64,000 nucleotides of DNA from a virus: positions 64,001-128,000 of IMG/VR virus record IMGVR_UViG_3300035188_001379; one strand, written 5' to 3'. Below, piece by piece: positions 28,326 to 62,960 of the stretch. The position numbers and the translations under genes are program-made. Below the pieces are notes generated by a model. That model had not been told where the DNA came from and made no database searches. It saw nothing but the letters and a program-made list of their open reading frames with translations. The stretch's first letter is position 1. Each line of letters begins with the position of its first letter.

Positions 28326-28424
28326 AACTCTGTAGTTCAGTGGTAGACCATCGCTCCCTCAAGGTTAAGGGCCAAAAAGCTGGGAATAAAGCGAGTGCCG
28401 TTGGTTCGATTCCAACCAGAGTTT
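28326..28424 (+). tRNA. tRNA-like gene with 34-nt anticodon loop (intron-containing or pseudo-tRNA), identity unassigned
   Basis: Acceptor AACTCTG/CAGAGTT, D-arm TAGTTCAGTGGTAGAC, anticodon stem TCGCT/AGCGA, T-arm GTTGG-TTCGATT-CCAAC; no CCA. Confidence 0.75.
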
Positions 28425-28966: not shown

Positions 28967-29053
28967 GTAGGAACGCCGGAGTTGGAGAGCCGGAGTGGAC
29001 TGTAAATCCATTGCCTTCGGGCTGACAGGGTTCGAATCCCTGGTCCTACACCA
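28967..29053 (+). tRNA. tRNA-Tyr(GTA)
   Basis: Loop CT-GTA-AA, long variable arm (GCC-TTCG-GGC), T-arm, encoded CCA. Confidence 0.92.
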
Positions 29054-47855: not shown

Positions 47856-47864
47856 TGGTATAAT
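47856..47864 (+). promoter_or_regulatory. Extended -10 promoter TGGTATAAT
   Basis: Exact intergenic motif, repeated at 58156, 59617, 61029 and 61560. Confidence 0.7.
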
Positions 47865-58202: not shown

Positions 58203-58278
58203 GGGCCTGTAGCTCAATGGTCAGAGCAGGGCACTCATAATGCCTTGGTTGGGGGTTCGAATCCCTCCAGGCCTACCA
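58203..58278 (+). tRNA. tRNA-Ile2(CAT, lysidine type) more likely than Met
   Basis: GGGCCTGTAGCTCAA...GAGCAGGGCACTCATAATGCC body resembles Ile2; encoded CCA. Confidence 0.85.
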
Positions 58279-61231: not shown

Positions 61232-61471
61232 ATGAGATCAAAAGAAATCGAAACACTTCACAGAATTAACGACGTGCTTCAGTTGCTGTTTGAAAAGATC
61301 AGCAACAACAGCACAAACCCTTTCGAGATTCTGGACGCACTTGATGAAACAATCGAACTTGTTCAAGAAATCGCTGAGATTATTCCTCACGACAGTTTCT
61401 ACAGACGAGTTCCAGAAGAGCATCTTGTGGGTTTGAAGAAACTTCGAGATGAGGTAGTTTCTGGGCTGTGA
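61232..61471 (+). CDS. Helical hypothetical protein, paralog of 62443-62679
   Basis: MR(S/T)KE...NPF(E/D)(I/V)(L/I)D.(L/V)D..(I/L)EL. Confidence 0.7.
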   Translation: MRSKEIETLHRINDVLQLLFEKISNNSTNPFEILDALDETIELVQEIAEIIPHDSFYRRVPEEHLVGLKKLRDEVVSGL

Positions 61472-61485
61472 ATTGCTGCACAGCC

Positions 61486-61528
61486 AAACCCCACCCCAAT
61501 CTGGGGGTGGGCGGATCTTTTTTTAGCT
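61486..61528 (+). terminator. Intrinsic terminator, duplicated at 62917-62960
   Basis: CCCACCCC-AATCTG-GGGGTGGG-CGGATC-T7-AGCT. Confidence 0.8.
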
Positions 61529-61559
61529 AGCAGCCCTTTTAAAAAAACATACATATTTG

Positions 61560-61568
61560 TGGTATAAT
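61560..61568 (+). promoter_or_regulatory. Extended -10 promoter TGGTATAAT
   Basis: Exact motif ahead of a ~460-nt region lacking a credible ORF. Confidence 0.7.
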
Positions 61569-61574
61569 ATTTTG

Positions 61575-62036
61575 AATAGAAATTTATAGCATATAGCTAT
61601 AGGCTACTGTTCCAAGCATGCTAAGAAAGTATGCAGTGAGTCACGACTAAACAGGGCTAACTATGCTGAGAATAGTATAAGGTTCGATCTGCCAAAGAGG
61701 TCCGAAGTATGCTATGATAGTATACAGCCTTGGGATACAGGCCAAAGTCGAATAACACATATCCCCAAAAGCATGCTATGTAAGTATGCAGTACGGTTCA
61801 CCGCTAAACGGGAGCAGTCTAGGAGTAAAGACTCAGCAGTGTATATTCGCAATTTAGAATATACAAAACTGCTACTCACTGCGCTATACAGCGAAAATAG
61901 CCCGATCGCTTGGAGAGGCGGAATGGCGTGGCACACACGTCTAAATACAAGTGTGTAGACTAGTGGACAGTCTGGAGTCCGTCCACTGACGAAGCAGGCT
62001 CTCGTCATGTCATATATAACAAATAGTTATATATGA
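61575..62036 (+). ncRNA. Candidate structured ncRNA or long 5' leader
   Basis: Four ATGCT-N5/6-AGTAT hairpins, a duplicated AAGCATGCTA..AAGTATGCAGT..TCAC..CTAAAC(A)GGG block, and several more perfect stems. Confidence 0.6.
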
Positions 62037-62446
62037 TAAAACCTGCAGCTTTTCATATGAAACCCATGAAACAGGAGAGAGTCAGAGTAGTACTTCCTTA
62101 CCTAGAAGGCTATCTTCTAGAAAGGTTAAGCAACCCAAGATGGCCTATGAACATGGGTAAAACCAGACATGTAGGCGGAGGAATAGAGAACAATGAAACC
62201 CCAGAACAGGCAGCAAGCAGAGAGCTGTTTGAGGAGCTCGGAGTAACTATACCTCCAGCTTCTTTTGAGAAACTTGGTTCCCACGAGAATCAACACTATT
62301 TGATCGTGAAAGATCATGGTCTTGTTCCTGGTGTGTATAAAGCATCTGTAGGCTCAGATGAGTATATACATCTTGTAGCAGGAGATCTCAAGGAAGCTCA
62401 GTATATCGGCCCTAGACTAGAAACCCTAACCCAACCCACACAATGA
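62033..62446 (+). CDS. NUDIX hydrolase
   Basis: NUDIX box GGGIENNETPEQAASRELFEELG; start may be a downstream Met. Confidence 0.85.
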   Translation: MIKPAAFHMKPMKQERVRVVLPYLEGYLLERLSNPRWPMNMGKTRHVGGGIENNETPEQAASRELFEELGVTIPPASFEKLGSHENQHYLIVKDHGLVPGVYKASVGSDEYIHLVAGDLKEAQYIGPRLETLTQPTQ

Positions 62447-62904
62447 GAACTAAAGAAGAACTCACGTATCTTATTGAGCTGATGAAAATCACTTTTAAGA
62501 TAATAGAATCGACTGAGTCACACAACCCATTCGACGTTATCGACAATGTTGACAGAGCGCTAGAGCTTTTCGAGGAGTTGATCAGCGTAGCTGTGGACCC
62601 GCAGTTTAAGTCTGAAGCTGAAGAAAAACGAGATAGCCTGGTGAATTTTCGGCAATTCGTTCTTGATAACGCAAACTAATCTTCAACCCAACCAACAAAC
62701 ATGACAGCCACAAAAGAGCAGCAAAGGCTCCTAGACTTCTTGTGCGAGAAATATGATCTTGCCGAGAAAGCTGGAAATCAGATCAAGCAGCTAGAGATGA
62801 TAGACCGTATCATTCTGTTTGATGAAGACCATCCTGGAATCATCTCTAAGGAGAAGCTTGAGAAAATTAAACAGATTGGTGAAGAGATACTAAAAAACCT
62901 CTAG
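62443..62904 (+). CDS. Two helical hypothetical CDSs (62443-62679 paralog of 61232; 62701-62904)
   Basis: Paralog motif NPFDVIDNVDRALEL; A/C-rich leaders. Confidence 0.65.
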
Positions 62905-62916
62905 CCGCTCAGATGT

Positions 62917-62960
62917 AAACCCCGCCTCGATTCTGAGGTGGGTGGATCTTTTTTTTAGCT
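62917..62960 (+). terminator. Intrinsic terminator, duplicate of 61486-61528
   Basis: CCCGCCTC-GATTCT-GAGGTGGG-TGGATC-T8-AGCT. Confidence 0.8.

Follow-up and report, generated by a model that had tools for sequence, protein, structure and literature searches.

A structured RNA with a pseudoknotted core immediately 5' of the Nudix hydrolase gene of an uncultured phage

What is encoded between an early promoter and a Nudix hydrolase gene in a phage known only from metagenomic sequence, and what could it do there? The locus belongs to an uncultured freshwater-type phage, IMG/VR record IMGVR_UViG_3300035188_001379 (184,465 base pairs (bp), completeness estimate 94%), of which bases 64001-128000 form the window of 64,000 nucleotides (nt) to which all positions below refer. 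An original prediction, made from the letters of the window alone, placed here a promoter-driven structured RNA with four copies of an ATGCT-loop-AGTAT hairpin, acting either as a multivalent protein sponge or as a large regulatory leader. The segment from 61575 to ~62056 is, in all likelihood, an element selected on its transcribed strand for RNA secondary and tertiary structure, which represents a new family with a core (helices H0-H7) of ~230 nt including a pseudoknot. That the family is restricted to a lineage and linked to the Nudix gene is secure. Most likely the RNA regulates the Nudix enzyme or acts together with it, and its preferred reading, held tentatively, is that of a cis-acting leader gating Nudix expression.

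Homologues of the RNA occur on four further metagenomic contigs, which were reached via relatives of the Nudix protein and members of their 90% clusters. Together with the window they fall into three sequence types: type A is that of the window, type B that of contigs L037, L182, and L183, and type C that of contig L184, which scores 71 bits (E = 7e-21) against the covariance model R1. RNAs identical to type A are present in three further datasets. The phage itself occurs in those behind L176, L177, and JGI 3300059473. On all five of the five distinct contigs, and thus in three lineages, the RNA lies directly upstream of the Nudix gene and on the same strand. Searches elsewhere recovered no further member. 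Neither blastn against 50,697 phage records nor nhmmer and blastn over 27 syntenic loci taken from related phages found a homologue; synteny with the closest relatives stops at tRNA genes at ~59349. BLAST and model R1 on 10 related phage records (57-205 kb) matched the promoter only, and R1 over 42 loci added no homologue. The same outcome was obtained with exact-pattern scans of IMG/VR (three matches in one scan are attributable to chance, that in L181 being a GC-rich ribosome-binding site), with a pattern scan of metagenome contigs, and with a scan of metagenome contigs by a Nudix profile, which yielded no contig carrying the RNA. The 79-amino-acid (aa) neighbour and a spurious 98-aa open reading frame (ORF), used as protein proxies, matched only themselves, and a literature search found no published description of the RNA. 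The earlier statement that no family is recognised agrees with these searches: Rfam 15 gave nothing for the RNA either at gathering score, at which the window contains tRNAs only, or at E<=10, the best relevant match over 61300-62200 at the latter cutoff being ARRPOF, at 17 bits where its gathering score is 127. Rfam on L037 gave nothing.

Selection on RNA structure can be recognised in the folds and in the substitutions that they tolerate. Compared with shuffled sequences, the + strand folds with z = -4.67 (61575-62032) and z = -5.58 (61575-62075), and the - strand with z = -2.66; values for homologues are -5.2 in L037 and -3.0 in L184. When the 96 pairs of the window's minimum free energy fold are scored on L037, 73 are unchanged, 8 are kept through a one-sided change, 6 are kept through a two-sided change, and 8 are broken, whereas random placement of the same 52 substitutions breaks 23.6 pairs (minimum 12 in 5000 trials) and compensates 1.2. 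This test uses the window's own fold only and is free of the circularity of folds taken from an alignment. On the - strand a single one-sided change is kept as a pair and 14 pairs are broken. One-sided changes are thus tolerated via G.U pairing on the + strand only, which argues that the + strand RNA is the selected molecule. The RNAalifold consensus of the window and L037 has 86 pairs, with 8 changed on both sides and none broken, compared with 0-1 in controls with slid partners. In a curated model of five sequences, two-sided compensation is seen at 13 of the 49 core pairs, 7 vary by wobble, and three helix-end positions are unpaired, each in one sequence; H0, which is not alignable column by column, was left out of these counts. 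Two of the compensated pairs belong to the pseudoknot, where U-A is replaced by A-U and A-U by G-C, the latter with a G.U intermediate in type B.

Judged by this substitution pattern, the segment fits neither a DNA-level element nor a coding sequence. The absence of a credible + strand ORF, already noted in the original prediction, is borne out by 1-nt indels that break the frames. The ORF at 61773-61958, whose conservation as a protein would have spoken for a coding function, is frame-shifted after ~12 codons in L037, and two 1-nt indels split the window's 61-aa ORF on the + strand and the 98-aa ORF on the - strand into different frames there. No relative of the 98-aa ORF was found among 5.8 billion proteins, and a protein-coding sequence was rejected on these grounds.

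The identity profile places the end of the element further downstream than had been claimed. Between the window and L182, nucleotide identity is 52% in the 79-aa gene, 74% in H1-H6 (with compensatory changes), 96% in H7-H10 plus the first 8 Nudix codons, 60% in the remainder of the Nudix gene, 74% in the 78-aa gene, and 35% in the 67-aa gene. No other block of the locus is thus as well conserved as the RNA's 3' domain. The near-identity of types A and B reaches ~62056 and then collapses, so the structured RNA that had been bounded at 61575-62008 stands as such, with an end that has to be moved to ~62056 and now takes in a 13-bp hairpin.

Features of the RNA-Nudix locus of the phage, in window coordinates (H, helix)
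Feature	Position	Strand	Basis or remarks
Intrinsic terminator of the preceding unit (79-aa gene), T-run and AGC tail	61490..61524	+	Tail and spacer kept in L037, L182, L183
Predicted promoter: -35-like TTAAAA, extended -10 TGGTATAAT (61560-61568), conserved ATTTTGA	61539..61574	+	10/12 matches, with TG
Whole structured RNA, from predicted start 7 nt past the -10 box to end of the A/B near-identical block	61575..62056	+	Fold z-scores, homologues, identity profile
5' terminal hairpin UAUAGC-loop-GCUAUA	61583..61603	+	Predicted fold
Hairpin copy 1, GCAUGCU-AAGAA-AGUAUGC	61616..61634	+	Motif scan, repeat family
Hairpin copy 2, U-AUGCU-GAGAAU-AGUAU-A	61662..61679	+	Motif scan
Hairpin copy 3, GU-AUGCU-AUGAU-AGUAU-AC	61707..61725	+	Motif scan, repeat family
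H0, GGGAUA (61732-61737) / UAUCCC (61760-61765)	61732..61765	+	AGAUC/GAUCU in the same place in type B
H1, hairpin copy 4	61771..61789	+	Sole copy common to all three types; G.U kept, closing C-G to G-C
H2, 6-bp hairpin with 7-nt loop GCUAAAC	61796..61815	+	3/6 pairs compensated on both sides
H3, AGUCU/AGACU (invariant), 8-nt purine-rich loop 61821-61828	61816..61833	+	
Pseudoknot, H3 loop 61823-61828 / linker 61872-61877, 5-6 bp, encloses H4	61823..61877	+	Curated alignment
H4, long hairpin, base kept, distal part variable	61835..61873	+	
H5, GCUAU/AUAGC (GCUGC/GCAGC in L037, L183), invariant loop ACAGCGAAA	61883..61901	+	
H6, bulged hairpin, invariant top GCUU-GGAG-AGGC, loop 61912-61915	61902..61926	+	
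H7, GCACAC/GUGUGU (GCAGG/CCUGC in type C), invariant 13-nt loop CGUCUAAAUACAA at 61938-61950	61928..61960	+	
H8, AGUGGAC/GUCCACU (61962-61987), and H9, GACGAAG/CUCGUC (61988-62006)	61962..62006	+	Types A, B; absent from type C
H10, 13-bp A/U-rich hairpin, 3' arm with annotated Nudix ATG 62033-62035	62008..62038	+	Substitutions in L037, L183 leave G.U pairs
Nudix hydrolase gene, 137 aa	62033..62446	+	PF00293, E 5e-10

The claim that the RNA is promoter-driven is consistent with the predicted promoter TGGTATAAT, located downstream of a terminator at 61490-61520. By analogy with leaderless genes of the same phage, the RNA should start at A61575. A hairpin similar to its 5' terminal one follows the same promoter in L002, within a short 5' untranslated region. 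The 5' domain is variable, with extra hairpin copies in types A and C and a different sequence in type B. The further stems listed in the original prediction, GTATATTC/GAATATAC inside GCAGT/ACTGC, ACACAC/GTGTGT, AGTGGAC/GTCCACT, and GACGA/TCGTC, are present in the sequence and in the predicted folds. The element GGTTCGATC, described there as T-loop-like, lies in a predicted stem, is not called by ARAGORN, and is absent from the type B homologues; it is therefore not a T-loop. Within the core, the H3 loop differs between types, and H4 forms a hairpin in every version despite distal parts that differ in sequence and in length (lengths of 41, 42, and 53 nt across the window and type B; L184 has yet another version).

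Downstream of the core the types part. Types A and B continue into H8-H10, which type C lacks; in L184 a run of seven U (304-310) directly follows H7, with TATAAT at 321-326 and the Nudix ATG at 333. The loop of H8, AGUCUGGAGU (61969-61979), almost repeats the 5' strand and loop of H3, AGUCUAGGAGU (61816-61827). It could therefore compete for the 3' strand of H3 and for the partner of the pseudoknot, which makes it a candidate for an alternative fold of the type A and B RNAs. A nine-codon ORF (MSYITNSYI, 62007-62036) spans H10 exactly, its stop overlapping the Nudix ATG in an AUGA. It is open in all type A and B sequences, and could reflect translational coupling or coincidence.

The repeated hairpin that drew attention to the locus is present as described, with ATGCT-N5/6-AGTAT at 61618, 61663, 61709, and 61773. 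The motif is found nowhere else in the window on either strand; 0.43 occurrences are expected from shuffles and none of 100 shuffles reaches four. No second cluster exists in the 184-kb genome with one mismatch allowed. Copies 1, 3, and 4 form a 24-nt repeat family with 79-92% identity, the spacings between the four copies are 45, 46, and 64 nt, and copy 1 begins a 48-nt duplicate of the H1-H2 module. As predicted, the G.U wobble is retained in all four copies and in every homologue, and the closing pair covaries (C-G, T-A, or G-C). The inner 5 bp, including the wobble, are invariant across the eight copies read, of which the window contributes four, L184 three, and type B one, and the loops are AAGAA, GAGAAU, AUGAU, AUGUA, and ACGAA. 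A 77-nt block carrying copies 2 and 3 is identical in L184. Among 185,579 prokaryote species, each represented by one genome, a degenerate 24-nt pattern of the hairpin gave two single matches, both in coding-like sequence, where our own estimate is that ~2 are expected by chance; no CRISPR-repeat or other array carrying the hairpin was found in these genomes, and Rfam gave no CRISPR-DR match on the hairpins.

Of the two functions originally offered, the large regulatory leader fits these observations better than the sponge. The reading of the RNA as a leader is favoured by its constant 5' position on the same strand as the Nudix gene, by the lack of a terminator between the two in types A and B, and by a conserved block that runs through the start codon. 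It is also favoured by the enclosure of this codon in a 13-bp hairpin and by the combination of a conserved core with differing downstream modules, which is the usual layout of riboswitches. In the proposed mechanism, the leader would belong to a Nudix operon relocated into the early region of the phage. Its folded core would sense a small nucleotide-like ligand, or a protein recognising the AUGCU/AGUAU hairpin, and would relay this state to an output module specific to each lineage. In types A and B this module would consist of H8-H10, with H10 locking the Nudix start codon, and in type C of the terminator-like U-run after H7. As Shine-Dalgarno sites are not used by this phage, initiation probably depends on an unstructured start region. 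What the sequences show is the conserved structure, the linkage to Nudix, the hairpin at the start codon, and the lack of coding, whereas use of the predicted promoter, switching of any kind, and the nature of the signal are inferred.

Riboswitches that control NUDIX hydrolase genes do exist, namely those of ykkC subtype 2c, which sense nucleoside diphosphates (PMC7266159). The phage RNA resembles them in being a structured RNA directly 5' of a Nudix gene on the same strand, and in joining a folded, conserved core to variable downstream modules (the start-codon hairpin in types A and B, the U-run in type C). It differs in that neither the window nor L037 has a ykkC match at E<=10, in the absence of a known ligand, in a core two to three times larger with a duplicating hairpin module, and in its confinement to one small phage lineage. 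A more specific version of the leader reading, which must be considered unlikely, would see in the RNA a new phage riboswitch-like class. Its pseudoknotted core would sense a nucleotide-derived signal of early infection (for example, a host immune second messenger, a derivative of NAD or ADP-ribose, or damaged or unusual nucleotides) and would switch on the Nudix enzyme that destroys it, the AUGCU/AGUAU hairpin adding a protein-binding layer.

Several points weigh against a cis-acting leader. The core of at least 230 nt, within an RNA of 390-480 nt, is far above the size of most riboswitch aptamers. The number of repeated hairpins changes from four in type A to one in type B and at least three in type C, where the contig is incomplete, and variation of this kind is commoner among RNAs that bind or sponge proteins than among ligand sensors. 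It hints that the hairpin may serve in protein binding. H8-H10 are nearly invariant and hence have no covariation support, the helix model is partly hand-curated, and the independent lineages number only three. The true Nudix start could be one of the in-frame ATGs at 62057 or 62066, both outside H10. In type C, the site formed by H7 and the U-run is not flagged by a simple terminator scan, because the H7 loop has 18 nt there, and the TATAAT six bases before the Nudix ATG would allow a Nudix promoter of its own and a separate, terminated RNA. Finally, promoter use, RNA ends, and processing are predictions.

The best surviving alternative, possible but less probable than a leader, is a stable non-coding RNA that acts in trans. 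It would arise from the early promoter, ending at a terminator (type C) or being released by processing of the operon transcript (types A and B), and would bind and titrate a host or phage protein through the AUGCU/AGUAU hairpin and the invariant loops. Such an RNA would act as a decoy or scaffold in host take-over, its place beside the Nudix gene reflecting inherited synteny or co-expression. This would agree with the sequence-specific hairpin, whose inner pairs are invariant while the closing pairs covary, and with the change of its number by duplication. Three invariant loops, ACAGCGAAA, GGAG, and CGUCUAAAUACAA, have the look of recognition surfaces; the type C RNA ends in H7 and its U-run ahead of a possible separate Nudix -10 box; and the place of the element is the early region of small genes, with a tRNA cluster 2.2 kb away. 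Against this, the RNA is never found apart from the Nudix gene, which in types A and B has no terminator ahead of it and a start codon inside the conserved block. No partner is known, the phage genome offers no targets complementary to the invariant loops, and no arrays or mimicked repeats appear in the prokaryote genomes scanned. With one hairpin in type B, multivalency is not a defining feature. The multivalent sponge, whether of the CsrB kind or an antitoxin mimic, is weakened by this single copy and is not supported in its original form; the irregular repeats, the lack of a ToxN-like neighbour, and the chance-level matches in prokaryotes point the same way.

The known systems to which such an RNA might be compared share some traits with it and lack others. 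As in CsrB and RsmZ, a short hairpin is present in several copies whose number varies between relatives, and GGAG occurs in the loops of H3, H6, and H8. In contrast to those RNAs, GGA is absent from the loops of the repeated hairpin, its copies number only 1-4, with a single one in one lineage, and a large non-repetitive pseudoknotted core makes up most of the molecule. Nor are many GGA motifs presented: of the three GGAG loops, that of H3 is variable and that of H8 is lost with its helix in type C. The translation signals of the phage suggest that its host may not rely on a Csr-type system. The type III toxin-antitoxin systems ToxIN, CptIN, and TenpIN have a comparable order of promoter, repeat-containing RNA, terminator-like site (here in type C), and protein gene. 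The phage repeats, however, are not tandem, are of unequal length, and are not near-identical, and the adjacent protein is a Nudix hydrolase rather than an endoribonuclease of the ToxN/AbiQ type. GOLLD and ROOL are likewise large, multi-helix, pseudoknotted phage RNAs a few kb from a tRNA cluster; the present RNA differs from them in having no Rfam match, a smaller size, a tie to one protein gene, and continuity with the Nudix start codon in two of three types.

It is improbable that the RNA is instead a partner or substrate of the Nudix protein, either through removal of a cap from an A-initiated transcript, with autoregulated decay, or as an RNA-Nudix ribonucleoprotein. The strict linkage of RNA and Nudix in three lineages and the predicted A at the start would agree with it, as would the contrast, within one module, between Nudix as the fastest-evolving block and the RNA 3' domain as the slowest. 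The Nudix enzymes RppH, NudC, and Nudt16/X29 act on RNA 5' ends. The Nudix protein of the locus, however, matches the generic Nudix box only, with no RppH or NudC equivalog reaching cutoff. Orthologous Nudix genes in more than 25 other, related loci work with neither such an RNA nor a non-coding gap, and nothing speaks specifically for this reading.

Least probable is an element that acts as DNA, for example an origin of replication, iterons, or the operators of a DNA-binding protein: half-sites AAGYATGC repeated about one helical turn apart, a promoter beside repeats as in some phage origins, and the weak, sub-threshold ARRPOF match would suit it, but they stand against G.U-preserving changes confined to the + strand (8 one-sided changes kept versus 1 on the -), the two-sided compensation and pseudoknot described above, an H4 shape kept with unrelated sequences, which is meaningless for sites in double-stranded DNA, and a cumulative GC skew without a turn at the RNA locus.

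Other candidates were tried and rejected. A tRNA-like or tmRNA element was dismissed, given that neither ARAGORN nor the Rfam tRNA and tmRNA models match within 61575-62056 and that GGTTCGATC is predicted to be paired and is missing from type B. For a hammerhead, CUGACGA is present, but with no GAAA core and no Rfam match. An antisense regulator of phage genes is contradicted by the lack of complementary targets for the invariant loops in the phage genome, and a role of the hairpin loops as codon-like specifiers for phage tRNAs by their inconsistency between types. An RNA anti-CRISPR or CRISPR-repeat mimic is not supported, with no Rfam CRISPR-DR match on the hairpins and no repeat array with the hairpin in the 185,579 prokaryote genomes scanned.

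The Nudix gene has a history of its own. The proteins encoded on the RNA-bearing contigs are 59-67% identical. At the nucleotide level, the part from 62057 to 62446 has ~60% identity to L037, L182, and L184, which places it among the least conserved blocks, beside an RNA that is 96% identical; this divergence could result from fast or diversifying evolution or from allele exchange. In relatives, the Nudix protein carries an N-terminal extension of ~85 aa, either fused (215-aa forms) or as a separate overlapping ORF, near PhoH. In the source phage, the extension exists as a stand-alone 89-aa ORF beside PhoH with no Nudix gene (genome 162564-162833; L178:2065-2334), 66% identical to residues 7-88 of the relatives' protein P0003. 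Because the extension persists alone next to PhoH, the Nudix gene of the RNA-bearing lineages has moved ~36 kb into the early region, to a place behind the RNA. The residues with which its product begins, IKPAAFHM, could be left over from the extension tail HKPTGFRIH. An intron in the Nudix gene was rejected: immediately upstream are a terminator and a promoter, an exon is lacking there, and the extension known from relatives forms an ORF by itself 36 kb away.

Downstream of the Nudix gene follow a 78-aa gene, a 67-aa gene, and a terminator at 62921-62950. The 79-aa and 78-aa proteins on either side of the RNA-Nudix unit (61232-61471 and 62443-62679) are paralogous small helical proteins with no family match. 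The same arrangement is present in L182 and suggested for the contig of protein P0002, and the flanking paralogues may be the trace of a module insertion. In the type B phage of L182, 740 nt with no called genes (L182:569-1311) lie upstream of the RNA locus.

The DNA polymerase of the source phage is only ~23% identical to that of its nearest cultured relatives, and IMG/VR holds related uncultured phages of 110-205 kb. Across the whole genome, a Shine-Dalgarno-like motif is absent at 138 of the 158 gene starts, which have A/T-rich upstream regions with A enriched at -3 and T at -1; these signals point to a host with Shine-Dalgarno-independent initiation. The RNA locus sits among small genes on the + strand that are divided into units by terminator-promoter cassettes. 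The promoter family, TGGTATAATA..TTGA (also written TTTGGTATAATA..TTGA), has eight + strand copies in the genome, those of the window being at 47856, 58156, 59617, 61029, and 61560. Several have an ATG exactly 7 nt past the -10 box and are thus leaderless, and one is the predicted driver of the tRNA-Met at 58203. The cassette recurs through the early region and is shared by related phages. Together with its preceding terminator, which ends in T(6-8)AGC, it is reminiscent of the promoter-early stem-loop (PeSL) cassettes of T4-type phages, mobile regulatory units that shuffle early genes; it accounts for 61490-61605 only, and the RNA body of ~450 nt has no counterpart in such cassettes. Elsewhere in the window the tRNA callers differ: Rfam reports a 99-nt tRNA at 28326-28424 (48 bits) that is not listed by ARAGORN and may carry an insertion or intron, and ARAGORN lists a tRNA-Tyr at 28967-29053 that Rfam does not report at gathering score.

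To our knowledge, few large structured RNAs from phages have been described, and almost none with a function. The RNA presented here is tractable: it has a clear architecture backed by covariation and including a pseudoknot, a 3' domain far more conserved than the surrounding genes, and a fixed partner gene, a fast-evolving Nudix hydrolase relocated from a late or virion-associated locus to the early region. RNA and enzyme are small enough for direct work in vitro even though the phage is uncultured. Should the RNA act as a decoy, its hairpin would mark a protein-RNA interface to look for. If what it senses is a host protein or a nucleotide signal, RNA-based control would be coupled to nucleotide hydrolysis by the phage at the start of infection, with a bearing on the conflict between phage and host.

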